Notes: generated by a model not told the origin, from the sequence alone. Shown: positions 33,810 through 54,283, counted from the first letter of the stretch. The stretch: 64,000 bases of DNA from Candidatus Zhuqueibacterota bacterium (GCA_049322915.1 JBMOPW010000001.1:14093-78092), one strand, 5' to 3'. A program made the numbers and translations.

Positions 33810-34157
33810 ATGAAAAAAGTTGCCCTGGTTGCATTCAATGGTGATGCGATGTGTTTTGTCCATGTTTTGTTGAACGCGCTGGATATGGCGGACGCCGGAT
33901 TCGATGTCAAAGTTGTGATCGAAGGTTCAGCGACAAAGCTGGTGAAGGAATTGGTGGATCCTGCAAAACCATTTGCCGGACTTTATAAAAAAGTCAAAGA
34001 CAGGGGATTGATCGATTGCGTCTGCAAAGCCTGTTCCGTCAAAATGGACTCGATCCATGCGGCGCAGGAACAAGGCTTGCCGCTGTGCGATGATATCTCC
34101 GGTCATCCGAGTTTGCGCAAATATATGGATCAGGGATTTGAGATCATCACATTTTAG
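33810..34157 (+). CDS. DsrE-family protein
   Basis: HVLLNALD, EGSAT, CVCKACS, GHPS, GFEIITF. Confidence 0.8.
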   Translation: MKKVALVAFNGDAMCFVHVLLNALDMADAGFDVKVVIEGSATKLVKELVDPAKPFAGLYKKVKDRGLIDCVCKACSVKMDSIHAAQEQGLPLCDDISGHPSLRKYMDQGFEIITF

Positions 34158-34231
34158 ACAAACGCTGTGAGTTCGCGGGGATAGCTAAACGCTTGATCAG
34201 ACGATTGGGGTGTACCTAAGGAGGCGAATGA

Positions 34232-37200
34232 ATGCCATCACAATTCAATTTGGAAGACGATGAGAGTCCTGGACAATTAACGACGACCATCAGACAATTG
34301 CGTCCGGGGGATCACCTGTGCTCTATATTCGAAACTATCCAGGAGCATCGGTCGATAATCACGACGTTCATTCTGACTGGTTTCGATCGTAATGAACGGG
34401 TGGTGTACATTGGCGATGATCATTCTGTTGCGCAAATTGAAGCGTACCTGACGGATGCTCAGGTTAATCTCGCTTCGTACATTGAAGCAGGTCAGTTTAT
34501 CTTCCTCAAAGCATCGGATATTTATATTGCCGACGGCACATTCGAACCGGAAAAGATGATTCAATATTTGAAGGACCAGACCGAATACTCGCTGGCGTGT
34601 GGATACGACGCGCTGCGGGTTTCTGGTGAAATGTCCTGGATGTTGAAGGGAAATTTTGGTACAGATCAGTTGATTCAATACGAAGCCATGTTGCTTGAGT
34701 TTTTCCTTCAACATCGATGCCTGGCCCTGTGCCAATACGATAAGACAAAGTTCAGCGCCGATGTGTTGCTGGATGTCTTGCGCACCCATCCTTTGGCCAT
34801 TGTCGGCGACGATGTCTATAAAAACTTTTATTACCTTCCACCCTGCGAAATTCTCAATCCGGATCGCAACGAAGCCAAACTTAAATACTGGCTTGAAAAT
34901 TTGAAAAAATTCAATCGGACTGAAGAACAACTTCACGAGGTTGACCGCAGGTTTCTAACGCTGATTAAAAACCTGCCAGGCTTTGTCTATCAATGCCTGA
35001 ATGACCGCGATTGGACGATGAATTTTATCAGCGAAGGTATTACCAATACGTTGGGTTACACCGTTGACGAAATGAAAAAAATGAGTTATGCCGGCATCAT
35101 TCATCCAAACGATAGTGAGCTGGTCTGGGATGAAATTCAAGAAGCCTTGCACCAGAAACAGCCATTCCGGATTCATTACCGGGCAAGGACGAAAGCCGGG
35201 GCCTATCGCTGGATGCTGGAACAGGGTTGTGGCGTTTTCGACCGCAACGGTGAATTAAAACACCTGGAAGGATTCATTACAGATGTCCACGATGAGCGAT
35301 TCGCAAAAGAAGATCGCGATCGGTTTTTTAATCTGACCACCGATTTGATCTGCATGATAACCGCCCGGGGCATTTTCAAATTCGTCAACCAGGAATGGGA
35401 AAAGGTGCTGGGGTATAAACAGATCGAAATGGTTTCCCGGCCGGTTTTGAATTTCATTCATCCCAATGATGTTGCGGAGTACAAACGAATCATCAGACGA
35501 TTGAAAAAAAGCGAAAGCACGATTCGATTTGAAAATCGCTATGTACACAAGGATGGCTCCGTTAAACTCATCGAATGGACTGCGACGCCCAGCGTTGAAT
35601 CGGGATTAATTTACTGCATTGGCCGCGATGTCACTGATGACCGCCGCTTGCACACTATGCTTCTTGAGAATGAGCGACGGTTGCGAAACGCTCAAAAAGC
35701 CGGTAAAATTGGCAGTTGGGAAGTGGATTGCAAAACAGAGACATGGACAGTCTCGGATGAGTTTAGACGAATTCACGGCGTCGAGTCGAATTACTTCTCC
35801 ATGAAAAAAATGCGAGCCTTTGTTTTTAAAGACGATGTGCAGTTATTTGAACACGCTTATCGGAGGACAGTGGAAAAGCAGTCGCCCTTTACCTTCGAGC
35901 ATCGCATAATCAAACAGGACACTCGAGAAATCCGCTGGGTGCTGAAGCAGGGCGAATTGGTCTGTGACGAGCGGAATCGACCCATCCAGTTGATTGGAAC
36001 GACGCAGGACATCACCGATCGGAAGCAGATTGAACTCGCACTGCAACGGGAGAAGGAACGCGCTCAGTATTATCTCGATATCGTCGGGGTGATGCTCGTT
36101 GTTCTGGATCGCAGTGGACAGGTTCGTCTCATCAATAAAAAGGGGTGCGCCATTCTGGGGTATTCCGAAGCGCAGGTCATCGGGAAAAATTGGTTCGATC
36201 ATTTTTTACCTGAATCCAACAGGGATGAGGTGAAGCATGTGTTCACCCAACTGATGGCTGGAAAAATAAAGACGGTTGAATACTTTGAAAACGACGTGAT
36301 AACCAGCGATGGAAATCCCCGATTGATCGCCTGGAAAAATTCAATCCTGTGGGACGAATTGCATCGGCCGACCGGCATACTGAGTTCCGGCGAAGATATA
36401 ACTGAAAAGCGGCAGGCGGAACAACAGATACAGTTCAGTAAAAAAATGCTTTCCGACACAGGCAAGATGGCGAAGATAGGAGGATGGGAGCATGATCTCA
36501 TCACCGGGAAAGCAGATTGGACGGATACGCTGTATGAAATTGTTGAAATTCAACCGGGCAGCACCCCCCCCGGAGTTCAGGAACACCTCAGTTATTATCC
36601 TCCCAAAGACCGGGCTATTCTCGAAAGTGAGTATCAACGCGCTATTGAGGAAAAGCGGCCGTTCGATCTTCGGCTTCAGGCATACACGGCCACTGGAAAA
36701 CTGTTATGGTGCCATGTGCGCGGCGAACCAGTCATTGAAAACCAAAAATGTGTGAGGTTCCGAGGCGTGCTTCAGGATATTACAGAGCAGATGCGGATCG
36801 AGGAAGCGCTGCGGCAATCTGAAACGCGCTATCGGTACCTGTTCGAGAATGCGTCCATTGCCATCGGCATGTCAGATGCCGACGGCAGGGTGATCGCTGC
36901 CAATCAGGTGATGGAGCAACTCACCGGTTTTTCGTCGGAGGAATTCCAGAAGATAAAACTCATGGACATTTACGTCGTGCCCGAGGATAGGGATCGATTA
37001 ATCGCCACAATACGGAAGGAGGGCAAAGTCAGAAATTTCGAAACGCATCTTCATCGAAAAGATGGAACCCTCTATCTTGCCCGATTGAATGTGGATGTGA
37101 TCAGGATCGGCGGGGAAGAAATGCTCCTCACGATCGCGCAGGACATCACAGAGAGCAGACGGATGGAAGAAGCGCTTCGCATGGAGCGGGAGCAGCTTCT

Positions 37201-38278
37201 CTCGCTGTTCGACAGCATTGACGAGATGATTTATGTGTCCGACCCTATGACCTACGAAATGGTCTATGTGAATAAAAAATTGCAGCGCATGCTGAATTCA
37301 GACGGAGCGGGCGAAACCTGTTACAGGCTTCTTCAACGCAAAGAAGCGCCCTGCGAATTCTGCACCAATCATTTTATTCTGTCAAATGACCATCAGCCGT
37401 ATCAGTGGGAATATCATAATCCATGGTTGAACAAAGATTTCATGCTGACGGACCGCTTGATTCGCTGGCCAGATGGCCGGGATGTACGATTTGAACTGGC
37501 GATCGATATTACCGATCGGAAAATTGCTGAGGCCGAAATTCAAAAATTGAACCGGGAATTGGAGCAGCGCGTCAAGGATCGGACTTTTGAACTGGAAGCG
37601 GTGAACAAAGAATTGGAAGCGTTCAGCTATTCGGTCTCTCATGATCTGCGCGCCCCGCTTCGCCACATCAGCGGATTTGTAGACATGTTGCGAAAAAATA
37701 TGGGCGAGACAACCTGTGAGAAGAACTCTCACTATCTGGATGTCATTCGCGAATCCGCCCAGCGGATGGGAAACCTGATCGATGAGCTATTGGCGTTCTC
37801 GCGGACGGGCCGCTCCGAAATTGCCTGGAAAAATTTCGATGCCGATACATTAATTCAGGAAGTGATTCAGGAATTGCAGCCTGAGATTGGCGCGCGAACC
37901 ATCACCTGGAAGCTCTTGCCGTTGCCTGAAATTTATGCCGATCCATTGAAACTGCGTCACGTATTTGTGAATCTGATTTCCAATGCCATTAAATTTACAC
38001 GACAGCAGCAGAATCCGGTGATTGAGGTGAGCGCGACCAGAGGCGACAGCAAGGAATACGTGTTTGCCGTGCGGGACAATGGGGTTGGTTTTGATATGAA
38101 ATACGCGAATAAACTTTTTGGGGTATTCCAGCGGCTGCATCGGACAGAAGAATTCGAGGGCAATGGCATTGGGCTGGCGAATGTTCGTCGCATAATCCAT
38201 CGACACGGCGGTCGGACCTGGGCTGAAGGAAAGTTGAACGAAGGAGCCACTTTTTACTTCACCGTTCCCATGAAGTAG
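34232..38278 (+). CDS. MEDS-domain multi-PAS sensor histidine kinase
   Basis: GDHLC..LRVSGEM.W..ALCQYD (MEDS); many PAS/PAC; FSYSVSHDLRAPLRH; FQRLH..GIGLA. Confidence 0.92.
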   Translation: MPSQFNLEDDESPGQLTTTIRQLRPGDHLCSIFETIQEHRSIITTFILTGFDRNERVVYIGDDHSVAQIEAYLTDAQVNLASYIEAGQFIFLKASDIYIADGTFEPEKMIQYLKDQTEYSLACGYDALRVSGEMSWMLKGNFGTDQLIQYEAMLLEFFLQHRCLALCQYDKTKFSADVLLDVLRTHPLAIVGDDVYKNFYYLPPCEILNPDRNEAKLKYWLENLKKFNRTEEQLHEVDRRFLTLIKNLPGFVYQCLNDRDWTMNFISEGITNTLGYTVDEMKKMSYAGIIHPNDSELVWDEIQEALHQKQPFRIHYRARTKAGAYRWMLEQGCGVFDRNGELKHLEGFITDVHDERFAKEDRDRFFNLTTDLICMITARGIFKFVNQEWEKVLGYKQIEMVSRPVLNFIHPNDVAEYKRIIRRLKKSESTIRFENRYVHKDGSVKLIEWTATPSVESGLIYCIGRDVTDDRRLHTMLLENERRLRNAQKAGKIGSWEVDCKTETWTVSDEFRRIHGVESNYFSMKKMRAFVFKDDVQLFEHAYRRTVEKQSPFTFEHRIIKQDTREIRWVLKQGELVCDERNRPIQLIGTTQDITDRKQIELALQREKERAQYYLDIVGVMLVVLDRSGQVRLINKKGCAILGYSEAQVIGKNWFDHFLPESNRDEVKHVFTQLMAGKIKTVEYFENDVITSDGNPRLIAWKNSILWDELHRPTGILSSGEDITEKRQAEQQIQFSKKMLSDTGKMAKIGGWEHDLITGKADWTDTLYEIVEIQPGSTPPGVQEHLSYYPPKDRAILESEYQRAIEEKRPFDLRLQAYTATGKLLWCHVRGEPVIENQKCVRFRGVLQDITEQMRIEEALRQSETRYRYLFENASIAIGMSDADGRVIAANQVMEQLTGFSSEEFQKIKLMDIYVVPEDRDRLIATIRKEGKVRNFETHLHRKDGTLYLARLNVDVIRIGGEEMLLTIAQDITESRRMEEALRMEREQLLSLFDSIDEMIYVSDPMTYEMVYVNKKLQRMLNSDGAGETCYRLLQRKEAPCEFCTNHFILSNDHQPYQWEYHNPWLNKDFMLTDRLIRWPDGRDVRFELAIDITDRKIAEAEIQKLNRELEQRVKDRTFELEAVNKELEAFSYSVSHDLRAPLRHISGFVDMLRKNMGETTCEKNSHYLDVIRESAQRMGNLIDELLAFSRTGRSEIAWKNFDADTLIQEVIQELQPEIGARTITWKLLPLPEIYADPLKLRHVFVNLISNAIKFTRQQQNPVIEVSATRGDSKEYVFAVRDNGVGFDMKYANKLFGVFQRLHRTEEFEGNGIGLANVRRIIHRHGGRTWAEGKLNEGATFYFTVPMK

Positions 38279-38514
38279 TTCGCGCCGGTATTGATACATG
38301 CTGAGATGCACCCGCTTCTGCCAATAATCGAAGAGGCGGTTATCATTGGAGACTATACGAATCAGAGATTTCAATTTCGATGTAAGAAAATGACACGCAG
38401 TAAATGATGGTGGAATCCACTGAAAATCAGGGTCTGAATCGGAATGTCGTTTGAACCAACACTCCGACGAAATGTCCTGTGGCGGATAAATCATATCAAC
38501 AGAAAGGATGAATC

Positions 38515-38964
38515 ATGGAGGGATTAAAACGAATTTTGCTGGTTGAAGATGATGTGAACGATGTGGAATTGACGCTCGAATCACTCAGGGAATACAATCT
38601 GGCAAATGAAGTTATTATCGCCCGCGATGGTGAAGAGGCGCTGGAGTATCTCTACAGGAAGAACAGATTCGAGCATGCCCCGGAAGGCCAGCCGGTGGTC
38701 ATTTTCCTGGACATTAAAATGCCGCGCGTGAACGGATTGGAGGTGCTGCGAATCATCAAAAACGATCCGGATTTACGCCTGATCCCGGTGGTGATGGTCA
38801 CCTCGTCCCAGGAAGAGCCGGATCTGAAAGAGGCGTACGAGATGGGGGCCAATGCGTATGTGGTGAAGCCGGTGGATGTGCAGCAGTTCATGAATGCGAT
38901 CAAAGAACTGGGAGTTTTTTGGGCTGTTTTCAATATGCCTCCTCCCGGCTGCATTAAAGATTAA
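38515..38964 (+). CDS. Single-domain response regulator (Rcp1-like)
   Basis: LLVEDD, FLDIKMP, TSS, GANAYVVKP, FW. Confidence 0.93.
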   Translation: MEGLKRILLVEDDVNDVELTLESLREYNLANEVIIARDGEEALEYLYRKNRFEHAPEGQPVVIFLDIKMPRVNGLEVLRIIKNDPDLRLIPVVMVTSSQEEPDLKEAYEMGANAYVVKPVDVQQFMNAIKELGVFWAVFNMPPPGCIKD

Positions 38965-39175
38965 ATCCCTGATATGTTCTTTCAATTCCGTGAGAGGCCC
39001 GGCTCAGGCTGATGCCGCGCATCGGAGAGGATTCGGTGTTGCATCGGACGACTGAGATGGATATGGCGCTTACCTGAAATTGAAAAAAGGTCGCGTCCAC
39101 TCAGGACAAATCCGCGACAGGGAACAGTCAACCGATGATTGAAATGGTATTGATTCAGAAAAGGAGACGCACATC

Positions 39176-41104
39176 ATGGGGACTTGCTTGAACATCCTCC
39201 ATTTAGAGGACGATCCCATTGATACTGAAATTGTTCAGGAGGCGCTGAAGGCGGAGAATCCCTTTTGCGAGATATTACGAGTGGATACCCGGGACGATTT
39301 TGTCGCTGCACTGGAGGCGCGGACGTTCGACCTGATTCTGGCCGACTACTCGCTGCCCATGTTCGATGGATTGAGTGCATTGTCGTATGTCAAAGAACAT
39401 TATCCCGAGATACCATTCATCCTGATCTCCGGGACGCTGGGCGAAGAATTGGCCATAGACAGTCTCAAATTGGGCGCCACCGATTATGTCATCAAACAAC
39501 GGTTGTCGCGGCTGGTACCTTCGGTGAAACGCGCACTCAAAGAAGTGGATGACAGGAATGAGCGACGGAGAACAGAGGCTCAATTGGCGCGGCTGGCATC
39601 CGTGGTGGAGCAGGCAAGTGAAAGTATTGTCATCGTTGATTTGAATGGCGATATTGAATATGTCAATCCCAATTTTGAACGCCTCACCGGGTACACTGCC
39701 GCAGAAGTCCTGGGCAAAAACCCAAAAATCCTGAAAAGCGGAGCCCAACCTGAAAGTTACTACCGGGATTTGTGGCAGACCATTTCATCCGGTAAAACCT
39801 GGTTCGGTATTTTTCAGAACAAACGAAAAGATGGGGTCCTTTTCTTCGAAGACGCCGTCATTTTTCCCATTAAAAATCAACAGGGCGTTATCATCAACTA
39901 TGCAGCGGTCAAGCGGGATATCACCAGTGAAAAATTATTGGAAGAACAGCTACTCCAGTCCCAGAAACTGGAGGCCATCGGCCAGTTGGCTGGCGGGATT
40001 GCTCATGATTTCAACAATATTCTCACGGCAATTATGGGGTACTCTGAGGTGGCATTGATGAACCTCAATTCGAACGACCAGGTTTACTGGGATGTCAAAG
40101 CCATTATCAAGGCCGGGCAAAAAGCGAGCAACCTGACGAGACAATTGCTGACGTTCAGCCGCAAGCAGATCATTCAGCCGAAAATTATCGATATCAACCG
40201 GCTCATCACCGATCTGGAAAAGCTGCTCTATCGTCTCATCAGCGAAGATATCAAATTGAAGATGGCTCTTTCGGATAAAATAGGCAGAATTCATGCGGAC
40301 CCCGGCCAGATCGAGCAGGTTTTAATCAACCTGGTGGTCAATGCCCGGGATGCGGTCAATCACCCGTCGATTGCAGTGACGCGCCGAAATATAACCATCG
40401 AAACGCGCGATGTCATGGTGGACGATGCATCTCTGTTGACTCACACCGACATGGCGCCCGGTCGCTATCTGCTCTTGTCAGTCAGCGACACGGGCATTGG
40501 CATGATCGATGAGATAAAGCGAAAAATATTTGAGCCCTTTTTCACGACAAAAAAAATCAGCCAGGGTACCGGCCTGGGCCTGTCGACTGTCTATGGCATT
40601 GTGAAACAAAACAATGCCACCATTCTGGTTGACAGCCAGGTCGATCGAGGCAGCACTTTCACGATCTATTGGCCTTGCGCTGAAAGCGCTGAACCACTTT
40701 ACGACACGCCTGAAGAAGAAACACCGCTGGTTGGCGGAAATGAGAGGATCCTGTTTGTGGAAGATGACGATCGAGTCCGCGCTTTCTCTGTCAAAGCGCT
40801 CAAATCCCTGGGTTACGAAGTGATCCCGGCTCGTGATGGCGCTGATGCGTTGAGGATAGTCAGACGGAAAAAAATCACATTTGATCTGCTCATCACCGAT
40901 GTCGTGATGCCGGAAATGGGCGGCATTGAATTGGCTGAAAAATTATCCGCAGACAGAGATGGATTTAAAGTGCTGTTCACTTCGGGCTATCTGGACAGAG
41001 ATTATACCGATCATGACATTCTCAAAGAGGAAATAAACTTCATTCAAAAGCCTTATAGAATCCACTCGATGGCGAAGAAAATCCGGGAGGTTTTGCTGCG
41101 GTAG
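39176..41104 (+). CDS. Receiver-PAS-histidine kinase-receiver hybrid
   Basis: HLEDD..ADYSLP, PAS NPKILKSG, AHDFNN, TDVVMP. Confidence 0.92.
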   Translation: MGTCLNILHLEDDPIDTEIVQEALKAENPFCEILRVDTRDDFVAALEARTFDLILADYSLPMFDGLSALSYVKEHYPEIPFILISGTLGEELAIDSLKLGATDYVIKQRLSRLVPSVKRALKEVDDRNERRRTEAQLARLASVVEQASESIVIVDLNGDIEYVNPNFERLTGYTAAEVLGKNPKILKSGAQPESYYRDLWQTISSGKTWFGIFQNKRKDGVLFFEDAVIFPIKNQQGVIINYAAVKRDITSEKLLEEQLLQSQKLEAIGQLAGGIAHDFNNILTAIMGYSEVALMNLNSNDQVYWDVKAIIKAGQKASNLTRQLLTFSRKQIIQPKIIDINRLITDLEKLLYRLISEDIKLKMALSDKIGRIHADPGQIEQVLINLVVNARDAVNHPSIAVTRRNITIETRDVMVDDASLLTHTDMAPGRYLLLSVSDTGIGMIDEIKRKIFEPFFTTKKISQGTGLGLSTVYGIVKQNNATILVDSQVDRGSTFTIYWPCAESAEPLYDTPEEETPLVGGNERILFVEDDDRVRAFSVKALKSLGYEVIPARDGADALRIVRRKKITFDLLITDVVMPEMGGIELAEKLSADRDGFKVLFTSGYLDRDYTDHDILKEEINFIQKPYRIHSMAKKIREVLLR

Positions 41105-41317: not shown

Positions 41318-41506
41318 ATGAAAGCGAAAATTGATCCCGAATTATGCACAGGTTGTGAGCTTTGTGTCGAGACATGCCCGGAAGTATTTGAAATGGGCGA
41401 TGATGTTGCTGTTGTTATTGTCGATGTCGTCCCGGAAGATGCGGAAGATTGCTGCCAGGATGCCGCTAATGACTGCCCCTCAGAGGCGATTGCTATTGAA
41501 AACTAA
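41318..41506 (+). CDS. Monocluster [4Fe-4S] ferredoxin
   Basis: CTGCELCVETCP ... CPSEAI; acidic; AGGAGG RBS. Confidence 0.93.
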   Translation: MKAKIDPELCTGCELCVETCPEVFEMGDDVAVVIVDVVPEDAEDCCQDAANDCPSEAIAIEN

Positions 41507-41662
41507 GCGATTGGCGCTTTCAGCGACAATTGATTGAAAAGTCGAAGTGCGCAAAAATACAATTTAAGTTCATGGTTCAAATTTTTTCAAATAAAATTCG
41601 TTCTATGCAATTTATTTTTGCGCACTGCCAACTTGATTGAATAGCATTATAACAGGTAAATT

Positions 41663-42673
41663 ATGGAATTTAAAATAGCTTTTCAAAAGCAGAACGTAAT
41701 GCGGATGGTTGTGTATTCATTGCTGCCGGCGGTTTTGGGAAGCGTGTATTTCTTTGGCTGGGTGAGCCTGGCCATTGTTCTCGTCTCGGTCGTCACGTGC
41801 GTGTTGACTGAATGGCTGTTCGTTCGGGGAAAAAATGGCAAGGTGACCGAAGCTGTTTTTGTTACGGCTGTCCTCTACGCGCTGACGTTGCCGCCGACAC
41901 TGCCGTTTTACATGGTCATTATTGGCGCTATTTTTGGAATAACCTTTGGCAAGATGGCGTTCGGCGGTTTTGGAAATAATCCCTTTAACCCGGCTCTGGT
42001 GGGTCGCGGATTTGTGTATATCACATTCCCGATTCAAATGACCAATGTTTGGCTGCCCGCAGCAAATTTTTCTGATTTCCCCGGCGGTTTTGTCGCGTGG
42101 AAATTTTCCGCTCTCTCCGATGGCCTCAGTGCAATCACATCTGCAACCCCATTGAGCGCATTTCGCGCCGGCGCAACCACTCTTCCTGACTACTGGCAGT
42201 TGCTTCTCGGAAATATAAACGGCACTTTTCAAAATCTGGGGGAAACCACGCGCATCGGCGGCGGCTCGATTGGAGAAACGTCGGCTGTTCTGTTGATGAT
42301 TGGCGGTCTGTATCTTGTTTTTAAAAAAATTGCCAACTGGAAATTGGTGGTGAGTTTTTTCGGCACATTCATCATATTCCAGTCGCTGCTTCATGTTTTG
42401 GCCCCGGCCAAAGTGCCCCATCCTTTATTCGGACTATTCGCCGGCGGCGTTGTGTTAGCCGGCTTTTTTATGGTGACAGACCCGGTCTCTGCCTCGCGCA
42501 CTGAAATTGGCCGGTGGATTTACGGCGCGATGATTGCCATTCTAACGATTATCATTCGGGCATTCTCGCTGTTTGCCGGGGGCGTGATGTTTGCCATCCT
42601 CCTTGCCAATATGTTCGGCCCGTTGATCGATTACGGCATAACCAGCTATCAACAAAGGAGCAAAACCAAATGA
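41663..42673 (+). CDS. nqrB: NqrB/RnfD-family membrane subunit (short N-terminus)
   Basis: FGGFGNNPFNPALVGR, FMN-attachment site TSATP, GSIGETS, FMVTDPVS. Confidence 0.85.
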   Translation: MEFKIAFQKQNVMRMVVYSLLPAVLGSVYFFGWVSLAIVLVSVVTCVLTEWLFVRGKNGKVTEAVFVTAVLYALTLPPTLPFYMVIIGAIFGITFGKMAFGGFGNNPFNPALVGRGFVYITFPIQMTNVWLPAANFSDFPGGFVAWKFSALSDGLSAITSATPLSAFRAGATTLPDYWQLLLGNINGTFQNLGETTRIGGGSIGETSAVLLMIGGLYLVFKKIANWKLVVSFFGTFIIFQSLLHVLAPAKVPHPLFGLFAGGVVLAGFFMVTDPVSASRTEIGRWIYGAMIAILTIIIRAFSLFAGGVMFAILLANMFGPLIDYGITSYQQRSKTK

Positions 42674-43437
42674 AGAAAAGTCTGAGTACAATTGGTTTTA
42701 TGGTCCTGATCACGGTTTTATTCATTTCAGCCCTGGCGTCCATTAACGAGTTAACAAAAGAACAGATCGATCGAAATTTACAGATTGAAAAATATAAATC
42801 TATGCTGTACGCCTTCAATATTTTTCCGAAGGGAATTAACGAAAGCCAGTTTTCGCTGACGAGCACAACGGATGATATTCCCTGGGAAACGGCCCAAATT
42901 CGTGAAAATTATGAAACACAAATAATCAGTAAAAAAATTCCCATGGAAAAGGGCGACCCGGAATTATTGAAAAATAGCTTCCTCGCTTTGACTGATTCCG
43001 TGGAAGTATTCATTCGCCTGAATGAGGAAAACCAGCCGACGGCCTACGGGTTCCCCATGAGGGGAAAAGGATTGTGGGGCACAATTACCGCTTTCGGCGT
43101 GATTTCAGCGGACCTGACAAAAATGGTTGGTATCGATTTCACAGAGCAAGTCGAAACGCCCGGCCTCGGCGCCCGGATTCTCGAAATAGAGTTCAAGCAA
43201 TTCTTTCGCAATCTGGATCTGAGCAGACTCCAAAATTCATCGGCGGCCCGACCGGCCATCATCATGGTTCGCAAAAAAGAAATTACCAACATGGATGAAT
43301 CGACCAACAGCCTCCAGGCAATCACAGGCGCAACTTTAACGTGCAGCGGTGTTCTTAATATGATAAATACCGATTTGAAGTTTTACGTGAATCTGCTTCG
43401 AATGAACGAGCAGTACTTGAAAAATAGGGACAGTTAG
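42670..43437 (+). CDS. nqrC: NqrC (FMN-binding) subunit
   Basis: N-terminal TM, GKGLWG, ETPGLGA, AITGATLT. Confidence 0.85.
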   Translation: MKKSLSTIGFMVLITVLFISALASINELTKEQIDRNLQIEKYKSMLYAFNIFPKGINESQFSLTSTTDDIPWETAQIRENYETQIISKKIPMEKGDPELLKNSFLALTDSVEVFIRLNEENQPTAYGFPMRGKGLWGTITAFGVISADLTKMVGIDFTEQVETPGLGARILEIEFKQFFRNLDLSRLQNSSAARPAIIMVRKKEITNMDESTNSLQAITGATLTCSGVLNMINTDLKFYVNLLRMNEQYLKNRDS

Positions 43438-43513
43438 CAGGCTGTTGTGAAATCGAATCATTTAGCATTTCACCATTTTAAGGATTTCATAGCGTTCAAC
43501 GCATGAGGTTTTC

Positions 43514-44158
43514 ATGGCAAAGATTAAAGCGATTGATATTATAAAAGAGGATCTGTGGAAAAATAATCCGGTAACCGTGCAAATCCTCGGGATTTGTTCT
43601 ACTCTGGCCGTGACCAATATTTTCCTGAACACGTTGATCATGGGGCTGGGATTGACATTTGTCACTGCCTTTTCTTCGCTGACAGTTTCGGTGATTCGAA
43701 ATATCATTCCGGCGCGAGTGCGAATGATGGTACAAACGCTCATCATCGCCAGTTTTGTGGTGATCGTCGATATCATCTTAAAAGCGTATGTGCCGAATAT
43801 CAGCAAAGCGCTGGGGCCGTACGTCGGTTTGATCATCACCAATTGCATTATCATGGGTCGGCTCGAGGCTTTCGCTTCATCGAACAAGCCATCGATGGCT
43901 TTTCTGGACGGAATTATGTCCGGCATTGGTTATACGTACGTTCTGTTGATCATTGCATTTTTCAGGGAACTGCTGGGCTTCGGAACCGTTCTTGGCTTTG
44001 AGGTGATGAATCCGTTGATGACTGCTATTGGCCAGACCGATGGCTGGACTCAATGGGCATTTATGATTATGGCGCCGGGCGGATTTTTTATGCTGGCCAT
44101 TTTTATCTGGATCAGTAAAAATCTCACAAGTTTGAAGGTGTCGCATTCACAAAAATAG
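43514..44158 (+). CDS. nqrD: NqrD subunit
   Basis: NNPVTVQILGICSTLAVT, VGLIITNCIIMGRLEAFA. Confidence 0.9.
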   Translation: MAKIKAIDIIKEDLWKNNPVTVQILGICSTLAVTNIFLNTLIMGLGLTFVTAFSSLTVSVIRNIIPARVRMMVQTLIIASFVVIVDIILKAYVPNISKALGPYVGLIITNCIIMGRLEAFASSNKPSMAFLDGIMSGIGYTYVLLIIAFFRELLGFGTVLGFEVMNPLMTAIGQTDGWTQWAFMIMAPGGFFMLAIFIWISKNLTSLKVSHSQK

Positions 44159-44170
44159 GAGTTCATTTAA

Positions 44171-44761
44171 ATGGAAGGCTTATCCCCCTGGGTAATATTT
44201 TTTGCATCCATTTTCACCGGCAATATTTTGCTGGTATATTTTCTCGGCATGTGCTCGTTTCTATCCGTGTCCAGTCAGGTGAAAACATCGATGGGACTGG
44301 GACTTGCCGTAACCTTTGTACTGACAATCACCTCCGCATTGAATTATGTGGTGTTCAATTATATTTTAGTGCCAATGGGCATTGACTATTTGCGCTATAT
44401 TGCATTTATCGTCGTCATTGCAGCTGTCGTGCAGTTGCTGGAAATGATTATTGAGCGATTCTCCGAAGCGTTGTATTTGAACCTCGGCATCTTCCTGCCT
44501 TTGATCACGGTGAACTGCGCCATCCTCGGCGTGTCGTTATTTATGGTCATTCGAAATTACACATTCATCCAGAGCGTCATGTTCGGCGCCGGAAGCGGTA
44601 TCGGATGGATGCTGGCAATTCTGGCCATGGCAGGCATTCGCCAGCGCATCAATATGCAGCGCATTCCGGTCGCTTTGAGAGGGCCCGGCATTGCGTTGAT
44701 TATTTCCGGAATAATGGCCATGGCATTCATTGGTTTTTCAGGCATGGTTCAAATACAGTAA
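44171..44761 (+). CDS. nqrE: NqrE subunit
   Basis: FLGMCSFLSVS, LGIFLPLITVNCAILG, MAFIGFSG. Confidence 0.9.
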   Translation: MEGLSPWVIFFASIFTGNILLVYFLGMCSFLSVSSQVKTSMGLGLAVTFVLTITSALNYVVFNYILVPMGIDYLRYIAFIVVIAAVVQLLEMIIERFSEALYLNLGIFLPLITVNCAILGVSLFMVIRNYTFIQSVMFGAGSGIGWMLAILAMAGIRQRINMQRIPVALRGPGIALIISGIMAMAFIGFSGMVQIQ

Positions 44762-44835
44762 GTACCAACGCTGTCTTCCTAAATTTCAGGTTCAACCGGA
44801 AAATGCAGAAATTGAATAGGTATTAAGGCAATAAT

Positions 44836-45945
44836 ATGGTTGCAAAAATTATTATCGCCACGGCCGCAATGGCCGGAATTAGCGGCATTCTTTCCATTCT
44901 GCTGGTGATTGCAGAGCGGTTTCTGGGGAATTATGGTGAATGCAAAATTCTCATCAACAATGAAAAAGAACTGACGGTCAACGGCGGCGCTTCGATTCTG
45001 GCGTCGCTGAATCAGCAGAAAATTTTTCTGCCCTCGGCGTGCGGCGGACGGGGCACGTGCGCGTACTGCAAATGCAAGGTTTTCGAAGGTGTGGGACCGC
45101 TGCTGCCTACGGAAGAACCATTGCTCACCAAGCAGGAAATCGACTCTCATGTGCGGCTGGCGTGCCAGGTGAAAGTGAAGCAGGACATAAAAATTGAAAT
45201 ACCTGAAGAATTGTTCAACATTAAAGAATTCGATGTTGACGTGGAGTCCATTAAAAATTTAACGTATGATATAAAATTGCTTCGATTGAAGCTGGTGGAA
45301 CCGAAGGAGATAAATTTCATTCCTGGGCAATATGTGCTGTTGATTTCGAAACCATATCCCGGTGTGAAAGAATCGGTTTCGCGTGCATATTCCATTGCCT
45401 CACCCAATTATGAAAAAAACCATCTCGATTTAATGGTGAGATTGGTGCCGGAAGGTATTTGCACCACATGGGTTCACCAGCATCTGCAGGAAAATGAGCG
45501 AATTAAAATTGTCGGGCCTATGGGCGATTTTCAATTGCACAAGGGCGACGGCGAAATAATTATGATCGCCGGTGGTTCCGGTATGGCGCCTATGGTTTCG
45601 CTCTTGGCCGAAATCGCTGAAAAGAAAATCGATAGAAAAGTCACCTATTTTTTTGGATCCGTTGCAAAAAGAGATTTGTTTTACCTCGAAGAAATGGCTG
45701 CTTTTGAAAAACAGATCAGCAATTTTAAATTCGTTCCGGCCCTGTCTCAACCGGCAGAAGGCGATGAGTGGGAGGGCGAAACAGGGCTGATTACAATTCC
45801 GCTTTCACAGTATATCAAAGACAATGACAATTCCAAAAGCCAGGCTTACTTGTGCGGCTCACCCGGAATGATAAACGCCTGCACAGTTATTTTGAAGAAA
45901 TACAATTTTACAACCGACCGTATTTATTTCGATCCGTTCGCCTGA
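44836..45945 (+). CDS. nqrF: NqrF-type NADH-oxidising subunit (TM, [2Fe-2S], FAD/NAD domains)
   Basis: SACGGRGTCAYC..RLACQVKV, RAYSIAS, GGSGMAP, YLCGSP. Confidence 0.88.
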   Translation: MVAKIIIATAAMAGISGILSILLVIAERFLGNYGECKILINNEKELTVNGGASILASLNQQKIFLPSACGGRGTCAYCKCKVFEGVGPLLPTEEPLLTKQEIDSHVRLACQVKVKQDIKIEIPEELFNIKEFDVDVESIKNLTYDIKLLRLKLVEPKEINFIPGQYVLLISKPYPGVKESVSRAYSIASPNYEKNHLDLMVRLVPEGICTTWVHQHLQENERIKIVGPMGDFQLHKGDGEIIMIAGGSGMAPMVSLLAEIAEKKIDRKVTYFFGSVAKRDLFYLEEMAAFEKQISNFKFVPALSQPAEGDEWEGETGLITIPLSQYIKDNDNSKSQAYLCGSPGMINACTVILKKYNFTTDRIYFDPFA

Positions 45946-45972
45946 GATTTTAAGACGCAGAGGAGCTTCGCA

Positions 45973-46428
45973 ATGAAACCCACGCCTCATGAAAATAAAA
46001 TTATTACAAATTTTCTGCCAGGGAAAATTTCCATGGATGGCTTTTTAGGAACCGATACCAGGCATGTGCACGATATTATTGCCGACGACAACCTGATACT
46101 GGAACGATTGGGAGTTACGCATGAACAAATCGCTGATCGACTTCAGTTTTTCATCAATGAAGGGAAAAAAGCTATTGAGGGCGAAGCCTCGGTTAATCAT
46201 TATCGTGTGAAAACGATTTGGAGCAGGGGAATGCTGGCATGCCCGTTCGGGGAACCGCGACTGCATCATAAAATTGTAACGACGGTGATCAATACAAAAT
46301 TGGGTCAGGAAATCGTTTACTCGCAACTTAATGTGCACATGATCCGGGATCATGGATTTTTTGAAGGAAAAGGAGCGAAATTCAGAGTTGAACCGGAACG
46401 TGTTGTTCGTGTTCTGGAATTAAAATAA
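45973..46428 (+). CDS. Hypothetical protein at the end of the nqr operon
   Basis: AGGAG RBS; natural-looking motifs GFLG.D.R, CPF, HMIRDHGFFEG. Confidence 0.8.
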   Translation: MKPTPHENKIITNFLPGKISMDGFLGTDTRHVHDIIADDNLILERLGVTHEQIADRLQFFINEGKKAIEGEASVNHYRVKTIWSRGMLACPFGEPRLHHKIVTTVINTKLGQEIVYSQLNVHMIRDHGFFEGKGAKFRVEPERVVRVLELK

Positions 46429-46869: not shown

Positions 46870-47388
46870 ATGATTTCCAATAAAATGACCGAGCAGATAA
46901 ACGAACAGATTAAGAATGAGTTATTCTCCGGCCATCTGTATTTATCGATGGCAGCCTATTGCGCTTCCAAGGATATGGACGGCTTTGCCAATTTCTTTGT
47001 CGTGCAGGAACAGGAAGAACGATTCCATGCGATGAAATTCTTCCACTACCTCGTCGAGCAAAACCAGGATGTTAAAATTTTCGGGTTGGATCAACCGCAG
47101 ACGGAATTTAAATCGCTGGAAATAGTCATCGAGGAAGCCTGGAAGCATGAGCAAAAAGTGACAGCCATGATCAACAAATTGATGAAGTTAGCCGTGGAAG
47201 AGAATGATTATGCCACTCAGAATTTGTTGAAATGGTATATCGATGAGCAGGTGGAAGAAGAGGCGACCATGCTGGGGCTTCTCAAAAAAATCAGATTAGT
47301 CGGCGAGAAGGGGCATGGCATTTTCATGATCGACCGCGATCTGGCGCAGCGAACCTACACTCCGCCAGCCGCTGCCGAGGAAGAATGA
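46870..47388 (+). CDS. ftnA: Bacterial non-heme ferritin
   Basis: LYLSMA, EERFHA, HEQKVT, WYIDEQVEEE. Confidence 0.93.
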   Translation: MISNKMTEQINEQIKNELFSGHLYLSMAAYCASKDMDGFANFFVVQEQEERFHAMKFFHYLVEQNQDVKIFGLDQPQTEFKSLEIVIEEAWKHEQKVTAMINKLMKLAVEENDYATQNLLKWYIDEQVEEEATMLGLLKKIRLVGEKGHGIFMIDRDLAQRTYTPPAAAEEE

Positions 47389-47493: not shown

Positions 47494-47868
47494 ATGACTC
47501 AATTAAATCAGGTGTACAAGTGCAGTGTTTGCGGGAACATCGTCGAAGTCGTCCATACCGGCGCAGGCGAATTGGTCTGCTGTGGTCAGCCGATGAAGTT
47601 GCTCAAAGAGAACACAACTGAAGCGTCCACGGAAAAACACATTCCGGTGATTGAAAAATCAGGTTCGAAAGTAACGGTGACCATCGGCAGCGTGGAGCAT
47701 CCCATGGAAGAGAAACATTACATCGAATGGATTGAAGTGCTGGCGGATGGTAAAGTGTACAGAAAGTACCTGAAGCCCGGCGACAAACCTCAGGCTGAAT
47801 TTGAGATCACCGCGAATAAGATCGAAGCTCGCGAGTACTGCAATTTGCATGGATTATGGAAAGCTTAA
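47494..47868 (+). CDS. dfx: Desulfoferrodoxin (2Fe superoxide reductase)
   Basis: [36 protein letters not shown]. Confidence 0.96.
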
Positions 47869-47916
47869 TCGCTGATTGGAAGCGTTCAAATTTCATTGGA
47901 AAATAAAGGAATCATT

Positions 47917-48444
47917 ATGGATAAATACAATGAACGTAAAGGATTGTATGCGCTGAAAGGCAATCCGCTCACGTTGCTGGGGCCGGCGCTCAAAGTCGGC
48001 GATAAGGCACCGGCGTTTCAGGTCGTCGATAATGGACTCAAGCCGGTGAATCTGAGCGATTTTGCCGGGAAGGTGATCGTGCTGAGCGTCACTCCCTCGG
48101 TTGATACAACGGTCTGCGATCTCCAGGCCAAGCGTTTCAACAAAATGGCGACAGAGGTTTCAGGCGATGTCGCGATTCTGAACATCAGTCTGGACATCCC
48201 ATATGCCTTATCGCGCTGGTGCGCGGCCACCGGCTCGGATCAGATCAAAACGTTGAGCGATTATCAGGAGCGCGAGTTCAGTCTGAAGTATGGCCTGCTG
48301 GTCAAGGAATTGAAATTATTGGCCCGCTCCGTCTGGTTGCTGGACAAAGAGGGGATTATTCGGTACATCGAAATCGTCCCTGAAATGGCGCAGGAACCAA
48401 ATTATGAAAAAGCTCTGCACCATTTAACACAATTAGTTTCATAG
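47917..48444 (+). CDS. tpx: Thiol peroxidase (Tpx)
   Basis: PSVDTTVC, SRWC, LLARS, EPNY. Confidence 0.92.
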   Translation: MDKYNERKGLYALKGNPLTLLGPALKVGDKAPAFQVVDNGLKPVNLSDFAGKVIVLSVTPSVDTTVCDLQAKRFNKMATEVSGDVAILNISLDIPYALSRWCAATGSDQIKTLSDYQEREFSLKYGLLVKELKLLARSVWLLDKEGIIRYIEIVPEMAQEPNYEKALHHLTQLVS

Positions 48445-48461: not shown

Positions 48462-48505
48462 AATTCCAACACCTGGCCTTCAAAAAAGCAGGTGTTGGAA
48501 TTTTT
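48462..48505 (+). terminator. Intrinsic terminator after tpx
   Basis: 14-bp stem AATTCCAACACCTG / CAGGTGTTGGAATT followed by T. Confidence 0.75.
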
Positions 48506-48614
48506 ATGTTCATCCGGAGAGAACTGGATATTCGGGATTGCAATCGGCAGGGGCACGGTCAAGTTTCTACCGAAACAATTCTTGGGCGATTCACCTACTT
48601 TTTCAGGAGATCCA

Positions 48615-49961
48615 ATGAAAAACTTTTTATTCTTTCTCACCTTACTGTTGGTGTGCGTTTCAGTGGTATTCGCACAGGATTTACCTGGCGGCGATGAAGC
48701 GCTTGGCACCAAAAAGTACGATCAATATGAAAAACCGGAGGCGTGTAAAAGCTGTCATCCGGATATTTATCAGCAGTGGACCCAGGCTATGATGTCACAG
48801 GCGTACACGCACCATTGGGATGAAATCGAATACTTCGATCTGGCGGTCGCGCACAGCAACGTCGATCCCAAAATCAAACCCGTCTCCGATGGCTGCAATG
48901 GCTGCCATACTCCGCTGGCCTTTCTGGCCGGCGATGTTCCGCCGCCCCGTCCCGCTGAGAATTCGCGCGCCAATGAAAGCGTGAGCTGCGATGTGTGCCA
49001 TACGATTAACTCTTTCAAAGGCGATACCCCATTCAACTTCAGTTTCGTTTCGCAGCCGGGCCGTAAAAAATGGGGCAACAAGCCGGGATTGGTTTCGCCC
49101 CATCACGATACTGAAGAGAGCGATTTCATGAAGCAGGCCGAGTTCTGCGGTAATTGTCACAATGAAAAAGACCCGTACGGCATCTGGGTGAAATCGACTC
49201 ACCTGGAATGGAAAGATGGTCCCTATTCCAAAGAGGGCGTTCCCTGTCATCGCTGCCACATGCCGCAGGCCTGGGGCAAAAATGCAACCATGGCCAACGA
49301 GGCAATGGTGTCCCAGCATCTCTTCCACGGCGCGCATGATCCCGGTAAACTTGCCGGCGCGATTGAATTGCGCATGCATCCGGAAGAGCGGGACGTTCAA
49401 TATGACGACGTGGTTGTGCTCAAAGTTCAGCTATTCAACGCGAAAGCCGGACACAAAATTCCCACTGGCTCGGTTGAAGATCGCATCCTCTGGCTACATG
49501 TAACCGCCACCGATGCCAACGGAAAAACGTACCATCTCCTGGTGGATAAGAAAGGCTTTGATGGAGAGGAATACACGATTGCCGCGGATGTCCTTGCTTA
49601 TCAGGATATGGGAATCCCCAAAGGCATCGCGGACTTCGCCGGCGTGCAACGCGATGGTGTGCCTGTGGGCGACCGTATTTTCCGCATGCCCTATTTCGAT
49701 CCCCAGGGAAGAATGACCATCATGCAATGGAATACAGCTTCGCTCGGCGTGGATTACCGGATTGGGCCGCGAGAAACAAAAATTGAAACGTTTTCATGGA
49801 CGCTGCCTGCGGATATTCCGCCAGGAAAAGTGACATTTAAAGCAGTACTCAATTATCAAAAACTGGTCAAACCCGTGGCTGATTACCTCAATGTTCCTGC
49901 CGATGAGAGCGAAATCATGGTCATCAATTCAGCCAGCACCTGGGTCGAAGTGTACGACTAA
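48615..49961 (+). CDS. Exported pentaheme cytochrome c (c554-like) with heme-free C-terminal domain
   Basis: Signal peptide; CKSCH, CNGCH, CDVCH, CGNCH, CHRCH; AGHKIPTG. Confidence 0.88.
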   Translation: MKNFLFFLTLLLVCVSVVFAQDLPGGDEALGTKKYDQYEKPEACKSCHPDIYQQWTQAMMSQAYTHHWDEIEYFDLAVAHSNVDPKIKPVSDGCNGCHTPLAFLAGDVPPPRPAENSRANESVSCDVCHTINSFKGDTPFNFSFVSQPGRKKWGNKPGLVSPHHDTEESDFMKQAEFCGNCHNEKDPYGIWVKSTHLEWKDGPYSKEGVPCHRCHMPQAWGKNATMANEAMVSQHLFHGAHDPGKLAGAIELRMHPEERDVQYDDVVVLKVQLFNAKAGHKIPTGSVEDRILWLHVTATDANGKTYHLLVDKKGFDGEEYTIAADVLAYQDMGIPKGIADFAGVQRDGVPVGDRIFRMPYFDPQGRMTIMQWNTASLGVDYRIGPRETKIETFSWTLPADIPPGKVTFKAVLNYQKLVKPVADYLNVPADESEIMVINSASTWVEVYD

Positions 49962-51165: not shown

Positions 51166-51315
51166 CGCTCGCCGGGAGCTGACCCTTCGCGTCGGATGAA
51201 TTCCAGTGGGGTGATTCTATCCGCAATAATGGATTTTATAGAATTTTCAAAACGACCAAGTAATGCTGTTACAGACAGCGGGGCCAAGTCTTGAACAAAG
51301 ATGGAGGAGAACATA

Positions 51316-52035
51316 ATGTCACAGGGACGAAGAGAATTTTTAAAACGGATGGGAATTGGCAGCGGCGTGCTGCTGGCGAGCGGTAGTTTCGCAGAGGTGA
51401 TGGATTTGTCAGCGGCGCAGTCCGGCGATAGCCCGATTGGCGCGCATCAATTGCCGCCATTGCCCTATGCTTACAATGCTCTGGAACCGGTCATGGACGA
51501 GATGACCGTCACGCTTCATCACGACAAACATCACGCGGCGTACGTTGCCGGCTTGAATAAGGCGGAGATTGAAATGGCCGAAGCGCGCAAGGCTGGCAGT
51601 TATTCGCTGGTGAAGCACTGGGAGCGCGAACTGGCGTTCCACGGCTCCGGGCATATTTTGCATACCATCTTCTGGGAAAATCTCTCACCCACAGGCGGTG
51701 GTCTTCCCCAAGGCAAATTGGCCGAAGCCATTCAATCCGAGTTCGGCAGTTTCGATGTTTTCAAAGCTCAATTGATGGCGGCGACCAATGCTGTCGAAGG
51801 CAGCGGCTGGGGGATTTTGGCCTATTCGCTTCTGCTGAAAAAACTGGTCATTTTGCAATCCGAAAAGCATCAGAACCTCACGCAGTGGGGAGCTGTCCCG
51901 CTGCTGGTCATCGATGTCTGGGAGCATGCCTACTATTTGAAATACCAGAATCGACGGACCGAATTTGTTGAAAACATTTTCAAAATTATCAACTGGGAAA
52001 ATGTGGCGGAGAGATATTCGGGCGCAGTGCTATGA
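51316..52035 (+). CDS. Tat-exported Fe/Mn superoxide dismutase
   Basis: RREFLK signal; LPY..NALEP, HHDKHH, GSGW, DVWEHAYY. Confidence 0.93.
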   Translation: MSQGRREFLKRMGIGSGVLLASGSFAEVMDLSAAQSGDSPIGAHQLPPLPYAYNALEPVMDEMTVTLHHDKHHAAYVAGLNKAEIEMAEARKAGSYSLVKHWERELAFHGSGHILHTIFWENLSPTGGGLPQGKLAEAIQSEFGSFDVFKAQLMAATNAVEGSGWGILAYSLLLKKLVILQSEKHQNLTQWGAVPLLVIDVWEHAYYLKYQNRRTEFVENIFKIINWENVAERYSGAVL

Positions 52036-53725: not shown

Positions 53726-54283
53726 ATGAGTCTGTTAGAGTTACTCAATCAAAGAAAAGCCTCCCGCGCTATCTCGTCGAGGTCAATCGATGCAGGAATG
53801 ATCGAAACACTGATGCAGGCGGCTCAACTCTCTGCGTCGTGTTTCAATAATCAATCCTGGCGATTTTTGGTTTTAACGGAAGAGGCCGCCCTGGAAAAAG
53901 GAAGAAAGGCCATCTCCGCCGGCAATAGCTGGGCAAATACTGCTCCGTTGCTGTTCATCGGGTTTTCCAGGTCGGATCTGGATTGCCAGTTGAAGGACGG
54001 ACGGCAATACTACCTGTTTGATCTCGGTATGGCGGTGCAACTCATTTTGCTGCAAGCCACGGAATTAAATCTGGTGGCGCGTCCCTTTGTCGGTTTCTCT
54101 CCGTCGGTGATTCGGGATGAATTCAATCTGGGAGATGACTTCGAAATATATGTGATGATCGCTGTGGGGTTTGAGGGCGATATCGATGCTCTCGATGAAC
54201 GGTTGCAGGCCATGTCCCGTGGGCCGCGGACGAGAAATCCTCTGTCGAAAAATTTCTTCCTGAATGAAATCGAAATGCAATGA
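53726..54283 (+). CDS. Nitroreductase-family flavoprotein
   Basis: RKASR, SASCFNNQSWRF, FDLGMA. Confidence 0.9.
   Translation: MSLLELLNQRKASRAISSRSIDAGMIETLMQAAQLSASCFNNQSWRFLVLTEEAALEKGRKAISAGNSWANTAPLLFIGFSRSDLDCQLKDGRQYYLFDLGMAVQLILLQATELNLVARPFVGFSPSVIRDEFNLGDDFEIYVMIAVGFEGDIDALDERLQAMSRGPRTRNPLSKNFFLNEIEMQ

Follow-up and report, generated by a model that had tools for sequence, protein, structure and literature searches.

The 64,000-nucleotide stretch of Candidatus Zhuqueibacterota DNA analysed here (GCA_049322915.1, JBMOPW010000001.1:14093-78092; hereafter the window, with all coordinates counted from its first letter) carries at 41318-46428 a gene cluster related to the Rnf and Na+-translocating NADH:quinone oxidoreductase (Na+-NQR, Nqr) complexes. 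It comprises seven intact open reading frames (ORFs), all on the plus strand: a 62-aa single-cluster [4Fe-4S]-type ferredoxin, fdx (41318-41506; Pfam Fer4_13, 49.3 bits); a 336-aa B subunit of the RnfD/NqrB family (41663-42673), identified by NCBIfam models, PDB matches and its position in a tree; a 255-aa C subunit of the NqrC/RnfG family (42670-43437; NCBIfam, Pfam), with an N-terminal transmembrane (TM) helix and an FMN_bind domain; a 214-aa D subunit of the NqrD/RnfE family (43514-44158; NCBIfam NF006777, tree); a 196-aa E subunit of the NqrE/RnfA family (44171-44761; NCBIfam nqrE/rnfA); a 369-aa NqrF-type reductase, F (44836-45945; NCBIfam nqrF, Pfam Fer2, FAD_binding_6 and NAD_binding_1); and a soluble protein of 151 aa, here X151 (45973-46428), recognized by homology and by its linkage to F. 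A first-pass annotation had described this order, with intact flavinylation motifs and D/E cysteines, and both the ORFs and the motif alignments bear it out. The true start of C is the MKKSL at 42670, the 307-aa ORF from 42514 being over-extended, so that the start ATG of C and the stop of B share 4 bp. The intergenic gaps from B through C, D, E and F to X151 are thus -4, 77, 13, 75 and 28 bp, while fdx is 157 bp distant from B. A promoter/terminator scan of the cluster placed promoter-like sites ahead of fdx and ahead of B and found no convincing terminator after X151.

Against the family models, B passes the rnfD cut-off (TIGR01946, 257 bits against 207) and misses the equivalog level for nqrB (TIGR01937, 189.6 bits against 349.9); among solved structures it scores 162 and 158 bits against RnfD (7zc6_D and 8ahx_D) and 130 bits against NqrB of Vibrio cholerae (7xk3_B). 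C lies below both of its models (TIGR01938 nqrC, 90.5 bits with a cut-off of 144; rnfG, 60.1 with a cut-off of 102), as does E (nqrE, 222.8 with a cut-off of 247.55; rnfA, 216.7 with a cut-off of 229.3), and F falls short of TIGR01941 nqrF (265.8 bits against 295). D passes NF006777 NqrD (245.7 bits against 235) and misses TIGR01939 (238 against 244.85). Five of the six Na+-NQR NCBIfam equivalog models are not reached. For X151 there is no match in either Pfam or NCBIfam.

The cofactor-binding residues that were checked are all retained. In the B flavinylation motif, ITSAT162PL, A161 is invariant and T162 occurs in at least 90% of 31 members of the class described below, and the corresponding ITGAT motif of C is present in the alignment. 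C28 and C111 of D are cysteines in all 40 aligned sequences (those of the class, Nqr, Rnf and the set labelled ALT), and C28 and C116 of E in 38 and 39 of the 40, respectively. F has the architecture of a TM helix followed by a [2Fe-2S] Fer2 domain and an FNR-like (ferredoxin-NADP+ reductase-like) FAD/NAD domain; it retains the N-terminal helix, C69/C75/C78/C110, and the RAYS and GGxGxAP motifs, lacks two insertions of canonical NqrF, and shares 31-35% identity with the canonical NqrF of the same phylum. In the alignment from the PDB search the aspartate of the B TDP motif (D273) falls on NqrB D346, a residue that has been discussed for Na+ translocation (PMC7414866), and this aspartate and the flavinylation threonine are retained in almost all class members. 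By sequence, the conserved membrane core of B, C, D and E has each residue required for two covalent flavin mononucleotides (FMNs) and an intramembrane [2Fe-2S] cluster, and the single ApbE gene of the genome makes flavinylation feasible.

B departs from canonical NqrB in its extent. It begins 9 to 12 residues, by two counts, ahead of the first conserved TM residue (M13 of TM1), its start lying almost at the first TM segment, as the first-pass annotation had noticed, and in comparison with canonical NqrB of the same phylum it lacks both an N-terminal region of about 45 aa and a 43-aa insertion between TM1 and TM2. In V. cholerae the high-affinity site takes shape when quinone or 2-heptyl-4-hydroxyquinoline N-oxide (HQNO) draws in the amphiphilic helices at the N-terminus of NqrB (PMC10643135). 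The earlier premise that NqrA and the NqrB N-terminus together shape the quinone site holds for the NqrB helices; its NqrA half is outdated, NqrA being no longer regarded as the seat of that site, and a 2025 review (PMC12174285) ascribes to this subunit neither a cofactor nor a function.

A survey that scanned one genome per species recovered 59 X151 loci, with record titles spanning KSB1, Moduliflexus/Vecturithrix, Cloacimonadota, WOR-3, Planctomycetaceae, Brocadiaceae, Spirochaetia, Clostridiales, Limnochordia, Thermodesulfobacteriota and others. An F-like gene lies upstream of X151 on the same strand in 49 of these, within 250 bp in 47, while in the other two inserted genes amounting to about 1.4 kb intervene; D and E are also present in 41 of the 49. 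The ten loci without F consist of three that stop at contig ends and seven distant or partial relatives. Among the 50 closer loci, 36 have B, and contig ends interrupt most of the remainder. The six-gene order B-C-D-E-F-X151 is retained across many phyla at 33-86% identity; it occurs, for example, in the Clostridiales metagenome-assembled genome (MAG) loci L050 and L063, with D-E-F-X151 at a contig end in L059. The window belongs to the class so delimited, namely B-C-D-E-F followed within 250 bp by X151 and with no adjacent A/C-type gene; none of 13 other loci has an NqrA/RnfC-like gene directly upstream of B. No gene is linked to the cluster more tightly than X151, the constant sixth gene of the class, as its distance from F shows (47/59 loci), and clustering of the flanking ORFs gave no other family in more than nine loci. 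The ferredoxin, which had been read as part of the cluster, is rejected as a conserved seventh component, its homologs recurring at this position only in the two closest of the 59 loci, L014 and L015.

Several variations on this arrangement were encountered. In two KSB1-type loci, L015 and L017, small genes interrupt the otherwise tight F-X151 pair; those of L017 (5977-7220 of the locus) are of toxin-antitoxin type and include a nucleotidyltransferase/HEPN pair. Nine loci (L027, L030, L032, L033, L035, L037, L040, L041 and L044) have a family of about 300 aa without a Pfam match after X151, followed in L032, L033, L037, L040, L041 and L044 by a DUF6599 protein; some of the nine also have an aldo/keto reductase carrying a 4Fe-4S domain. 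A third arrangement occurs in a genome of another family of the same class as that of the window (L096, G044:C19:24000-36000, about 4010-11906, minus strand). It consists of an HdrD-like CCG/4Fe-4S protein (701 aa), an RnfC/NqrA-like protein (478 aa) with RnfC_N, NQRA_2nd and 4Fe-4S dicluster domains and no Complex1_51K match, a B of 359 aa with an NqrB-like N-terminus, D and E after a gap of about 0.7 kb, and a short NqrF (360 aa). X151 is absent, and the D sequence branches as sister to the class plus canonical Nqr.

The relationship of the class to Rnf and Nqr was examined with trees from a quick search with SH-aLRT (Shimodaira-Hasegawa-like approximate likelihood-ratio) support, in which the paralogous D and E were analysed jointly so that each half roots the other. 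Ten genomes, all of the window's own phylum, supplied the canonical nqr references, operons whose NqrA exceeds the cut-off, and the Rnf references came from six genomes, i.e., five carriers and the window's own genome, G000. In the D/E tree RnfE is basal, the ALT, class and canonical NqrD sequences form a clade with a support of 100, and within it the class groups with a monophyletic, long-branched NqrD at 97; the E half gives a three-way split without resolution. The B tree has a branch that sets off Rnf (support 100), another for canonical Nqr (100) and a third for the class (98); Rnf stands opposite the class and Nqr together, and the window groups with L014 and KSB1-labelled loci. According to the B and D/E trees, the class is thus a lineage of its own that falls to the Nqr side of the division from Rnf, with a B that is still RnfD-like.

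The genome itself (G000; 6.25 Mb in 45 contigs, 96.3% complete) has a single RnfC and neither NqrA nor RnfB over cut-off. In whole-genome searches the NqrA model TIGR01936 gave only a 24.1-bit cross-hit on that RnfC (cut-off 321), so there is no nqrA elsewhere, and the best RnfB match (58.3) stays below its cut-off (68.7). The reported absence of nqrA, rnfB and rnfC is hence right for the window, and for NqrA and RnfB genome-wide, while one rnfC over cut-off stands on contig C10 beside its own rnfD, in a truncated rnfC-rnfD-rnfA' cluster in which rnfG, rnfE and rnfB were not found. This remnant (L013, G000:C10:106000-122000, genes at 7242-10521 on the minus strand) comprises all the Rnf genes of G000; downstream of it come tatC and nadA, and its RnfA' is a divergent protein of 247 aa that scores 125.6 bits against about 220 in relatives. 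The genome has three PF02508 (Rnf-Nqr) genes against four in most genomes of the order; a genome of the same genus, G124, has the usual four. NqrA over cut-off is likewise missing from all five other cluster-carrying genomes that were searched, three of them complete chromosomes, and all five have a separate RnfC.

Across the phylum NqrA has matches in 64 of 167 genomes, 60 of them over cut-off, and X151 occurs in 35; since the relatives are not independent, no statistic is drawn from these counts. NqrA is absent from all 13 genomes of the window's family and from all seven of the other two families of its order. X151 occurs without NqrA in families f1-f3, and NqrA without X151 in f7, f11 and f14 and likewise in f10 apart from G092, which combines NqrA with a weak X151 match.

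A word-index search gives 90 homologs of X151, all unnamed or 'hypothetical' and the named ones from KSB1 and KSB3; a profile built from 30 of the homologs retrieves 1729 cluster representatives with a threshold of E<=1e-3, or 795 if it is set to E<=1e-10. An AlphaFold2 (AF2) model from a 30-row alignment is confident, with a pLDDT (predicted local distance difference test) of 92.1 and a pTM (predicted TM-score) of 0.86, and its fold has no match: Foldseek against the PDB returned nothing at E<=0.001, only weak rows to PqqB and metallo-beta-lactamase (MBL)-fold proteins at E~0.1, and the best Z in a wide VIA-align search was 2.6. The ESM Atlas gave 'hypothetical protein' clusters only, with DUF7919 on 13% of one cluster; in a Pfam scan of the longer members DUF7919 appeared in P0220 only, below cut-off. 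The few invariant polar residues are D28, R30, D39, K100, H122 and R138. A metal site based on the HxHD motif was dismissed for the family as a whole, since the divergent and fused members have other residues in place of H31 and H33. The complex predicted for B, F and X151 reached a best score of 0.30, where the mark is 0.32, and is evidence neither way.

Domain fusions of X151 point towards oxygen defence. A scan of 17 longer family members gave four clear fusions, to rubredoxin (P0169, with a rubredoxin score of 74 bits), a rubrerythrin diiron domain (P0098), a nitroreductase (P0171) and a rubredoxin-like stretch (P0159), and a fifth (P0204) joins a peroxiredoxin-like fragment to X151; the remaining 12 have no domain over cut-off. 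In P0098 X151 stands before the diiron domain in a protein without a rubredoxin domain of its own. A second kind of association is with the reductase: L027 and L042-L044 encode an F-like protein lacking the TM helix, followed directly by X151 and without B-E genes, and the genomes G173-G175, which have such soluble pairs, give no PF02508 match (they are MAGs of unstated completeness). These pairs imply that X151 tracks the NqrF-type reductase and not the membrane core. The earlier idea that the 151-aa ORF may be an extra subunit is upheld as regards its linkage and is not supported as regards a tie to the membrane core. L017 was set aside as a case of this kind, as its B-C-D-E genes are on another contig of the same genome.

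Other relatives stand apart from these associations. The distant X151 relatives of L064-L069 (30-36% identity) occur without F, two of them beside DUF6345, and some lie within longer proteins with no Pfam domain, offering no functional lead. P0091 (885 aa) and P0157 (2506 aa) each have three X151-like stretches and no Pfam domain, so the X151 fold is predicted to occur also as a repeat in giant proteins.

The genes around the cluster supply a further line of evidence. Directly downstream of X151, all on the plus strand, come a ferritin (46870-47388), a 2Fe superoxide reductase (SOR; 47494-47868) and the thiol peroxidase Tpx (47896-48444), identified from the ORFs, and this trio also follows the cluster in L014 and L015. 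Beyond it Pfam matches identify, after a multihaem cytochrome c of 489 aa directly following Tpx (48492-49961), a series of plus-strand genes: an Fe/Mn superoxide dismutase (SOD) with an N-terminal extension (51301-52035), a nitroreductase (53726-54283), a rubrerythrin (54491-55054), a rubredoxin absent from the first-pass annotation (57207-57347, i.e., G000:C1:71299-71439; PF00301, 88.4 bits), an AhpC-type peroxiredoxin (57408-57929) and a catalytic subunit resembling that of ferredoxin:thioredoxin reductase (FTR-like; FeThRed_B, 58032-58583). A Fur-family regulator with two rubrerythrin-type genes lies on the plus strand at 19229-20885 (tblastn matches at G000:C1:33354-34965, or 19262-20873 of the window), and another Fur-family gene is found further upstream (5860-6315). 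By tblastn, 12 of the 19 oxygen-defence-type matches of the genome fall in the window, which is its main oxygen-defence (oxidative-stress) island. The FTR-like subunit and the operon-heading ferredoxin could together form a ferredoxin-dependent supply line for thiol peroxidases.

The remaining neighbours are of other kinds. After the multihaem cytochrome comes a 393-aa protein that weakly matches S-layer beta-barrels. Immediately upstream of the operon (30956-41104) several sensor histidine kinases, PAS-rich and of very large size, follow one another, one of them of 1348 aa with a MEDS domain, with response-regulator genes alongside; these kinases could be regulators of the operon.

Flanks of the 50 closer loci were queried for SOR, rubrerythrin, rubredoxin, ferritin, Tpx/AhpC, SOD, Fur-family, flavodiiron-type and nitroreductase genes, and at least one such gene was present in 23, against a crude expectation of ~6% per 20 kb calculated from G000, in KSB1-type, Planctomycetaceae, Spirochaetia, WOR-3, Brocadiaceae and Clostridiales records. 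Among individual cases, flavodiiron genes (ODP plus flavodoxin) lie 12 bp upstream of B in L061 and 139 bp upstream in L052, and a catalase gene is upstream of B in the Cloacimonadota locus L045. The link to rubredoxin, SOR and rubrerythrin that had been conjectured from the window thus gains comparative support from the fusions, the neighbourhoods and the island in G000.

Taken together, these observations suggest that the cluster may encode a member of a distinct, widespread third branch of the family, an NADH-driven ion pump that would feed rubredoxin-type oxygen defence and not quinone, with X151 as the adaptor; we would put its probability at roughly 0.4. NADH would be oxidised at F, and electrons would pass from its [2Fe-2S] cluster to the D/E cluster, to the FMN of C, and to the FMN and a flavin in B, a route modelled on the established Rnf/Nqr electron path (PMC12174285). 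This path would drive Na+ or H+ export whenever the acceptor is more positive than NADH. The exit would be a cytoplasmic, higher-potential pool of rubredoxin type and not the canonical quinone site, and that pool would serve SOR, rubrerythrin, flavodiiron and peroxiredoxin-type enzymes. X151 would act as the adaptor or output module coupling the F-type reductase system to these proteins, so that in G000 the operon would supply the oxygen-defence island with NADH electrons, possibly conserving energy. The fusions and neighbourhoods are the grounds for the rubredoxin-type acceptor and the adaptor role, and the loss from B of the helices that form the high-affinity site in V. cholerae argues against a canonical quinone exit, as does a complete Cloacimonadales chromosome (G167) that has the cluster and no match to MenA or MqnA; MenA is over cut-off in only one of five genomes. 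Extended to the class as a whole, this would make it an energy-conserving, ion-pumping NADH:rubredoxin-type oxidoreductase in which X151, an output or adaptor domain of a new kind, replaces NqrA/RnfC and passes electrons to rubredoxin, rubrerythrin, SOR and flavodiiron proteins, a generalization that is somewhat doubtful. If true, the removal of O2, superoxide and peroxide would contribute to the membrane potential of strict anaerobes in many phyla, and together with the FeS-bearing A/C-like variant at L096 the Rnf/Nqr core would emerge as a general pump with exchangeable output modules.

Several observations weigh against an ion pump that delivers to rubredoxin-type carriers. The pairing of X151 with a soluble F elsewhere means that F could reduce the acceptor directly, short-circuiting the pump and leaving the role of B-C-D-E unexplained; the topology is accordingly the weak point, namely how a detour through the membrane would be enforced. 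In X151 neither a Cys-rich stretch nor any known cofactor motif is present, HxHD and Cys90 are not conserved over the whole family, and a redox centre may be absent from it. No oxygen-defence gene was found in the fetched flanks of 27 of the 50 closer loci, among them those of Moduliflexota type (L019, L020, L022, L023, L031 and L057) and of Cloacimonadota (L048 and L060), and the baseline for the neighbourhoods is that of G000 only. For the trees, a single phylum supplied the canonical NQR references, and six genomes those for Rnf. Five genomes (G021, G022, G023, G034 and G037) have NqrA and X151 together. The largely complementary distribution of the two by family might equally be expected of a functional substitute for NQR, and MenA is over cut-off in G000 (113.6 bits), so that menaquinone is available there (MqnA was not found in a search of the whole genome).

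The last two points lead to the main rival, which that MenA keeps alive: an ordinary NADH:menaquinone oxidoreductase that dispenses with NqrA, in which the riboflavin in B would reduce menaquinone and X151 would be an accessory of F in assembly, stability or regulation. In its favour, NqrA has neither cofactor nor assigned function in NQR (PMC12174285), and D, E and B branch on the Nqr side. It sits poorly with a B that lacks two features of canonical NqrB, the insertion and the N-terminal amphiphilic helices (PMC10643135), with a class reported from quinone-poor fermenters (PMC4148951, PMC5924567), with the MenA/MqnA-negative G167 and the scarcity of MenA, and with the genomes that hold both canonical NqrA and X151; the fusions of X151 to rubredoxin and rubrerythrin would have no explanation under it. 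A plain menaquinone reductase is thus considered unlikely.

A different role for X151 would remove it from electron transfer altogether. It could be a regulator or chaperone of NqrF-type reductases, imposing, for example, an oxygen- or peroxide-gated oxidation of NADH, with the acceptor of the complex not encoded nearby. A protein with no recognisable cofactor motif, few invariant polar residues and no fold match would suit such a function; its repeated appearance in fusions at the position of an electron-entry domain, as in P0098, and its one-to-one conservation with F over many phyla do not, and this explanation is judged quite improbable.

Alternatively, the two halves of the cluster might work apart, with F and X151 as an NADH:acceptor reductase of soluble type and the core sending electrons through the FMN of C to periplasmic acceptors, such as cytochromes or periplasmic peroxide/superoxide defence, or running in reverse on the ion gradient. 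The F and X151 pairs free of a TM helix, in genomes with no Rnf/Nqr membrane genes, would fit this division of labour, as would the multihaem cytochrome and the extended SOD downstream of the operon in the window. However, the near-universal retention of the B flavinylation threonine and TDP aspartate implies that the full B-dependent path is used, flanking-ORF clustering gave no conserved periplasmic partner gene across the loci, and the multihaem cytochrome family is near the cluster in only four of them, the window included; we regard the arrangement as very unlikely.

That the cluster is a decaying remnant of an Nqr/Rnf operon with no working complex, an idea to which the truncated rnfC-rnfD-rnfA' cluster of the same genome and the sub-equivalog scores of most subunits might lend colour, can practically be dismissed in view of seven intact ORFs, the retention of all checked cofactor-binding residues and a six-gene order kept across many phyla.

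The cluster can be set beside the systems it resembles, first of all Rnf and Nqr, which are the two branches so far known in a major respiratory ion-pump family. With Na+-NQR (V. cholerae, 7xk3 and 8a1t-8a1v) the window cluster shares the B-C-D-E-F order, the NqrF-type input, the flavinylation threonines of B and C, the four D/E cysteines, the TDP aspartate of B, and the position of D, E and B in the trees; it differs in lacking NqrA, in a B of RnfD size without the N-terminal helices and the 43-aa insertion, in an F without the two insertions, and in the extra conserved gene for X151. With Rnf (RnfCDGEAB; 7zc6, 8ahx and 9erk) it shares the core of four membrane and flavin subunits and a B that exceeds the rnfD cut-off and is nearer in sequence to solved RnfD than to NqrB. 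Unlike Rnf, the cluster has neither RnfC nor RnfB, the latter being absent from G000 as a whole; NADH would enter from the D/E side through the NqrF-type reductase, in contrast to the RnfC side in Rnf; and in the trees Rnf subunits from genomes of these same kinds fall into separate clades.

NqrA-less nqrBCDEF operons have themselves been remarked on since 2014, in passing mentions that state the acceptor as unknown. They have been described from Pseudothermotoga thermarum and P. lettingae (PMC4148951), Clostridium ultunense, where an acceptor more negative than quinone was suggested (PMC5924567), Candidatus Izimaplasma ZiA1 (PMC6256511) and Miniphocaeibacter halophilus (PMC9558581). Compared by description only, these clusters share with the window the five genes B-C-D-E-F and the absence of NqrA, and the passages that describe them mention neither a sixth gene nor a link to oxygen defence; in the gene numbering of C. 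ultunense a rubrerythrin, CUESP_0386, comes seven genes after the cluster CUESP_0375-0379 (PMC5924567). In full-text literature, subscription journals being outside its coverage, no paper was found on the sixth gene, the rubredoxin link or the biochemistry. What the present analysis would add to the known absence of NqrA is that these operons probably form a widespread clade of their own, with a constant sixth protein that is found fused to, or beside, rubredoxin-type proteins of oxygen defence.

The closest counterpart in terms of reaction is of an altogether different build. Anaerobes possess soluble chains in which an NADH:rubredoxin oxidoreductase supplies rubredoxin and, through it, SOR, rubrerythrin or flavodiiron proteins, e.g., the chain of NADH:rubredoxin oxidoreductase, rubredoxin and rubredoxin:oxygen oxidoreductase (NRO-Rd-ROO) of Desulfovibrio gigas. 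The proposed overall reaction, from NADH via rubredoxin-type carriers to the detoxification of oxygen and peroxide, is the same, and the partner genes of these chains recur as neighbours of the cluster. However, the NADH oxidase of those chains is a soluble flavoprotein and no energy is conserved, whereas in the window it is a subunit of an Rnf/Nqr-type membrane pump accompanied by X151. If confirmed, the six-gene class would thus represent a third reaction type in the Rnf/Nqr family and would indicate that in anaerobes oxygen detoxification can be coupled to energy conservation.

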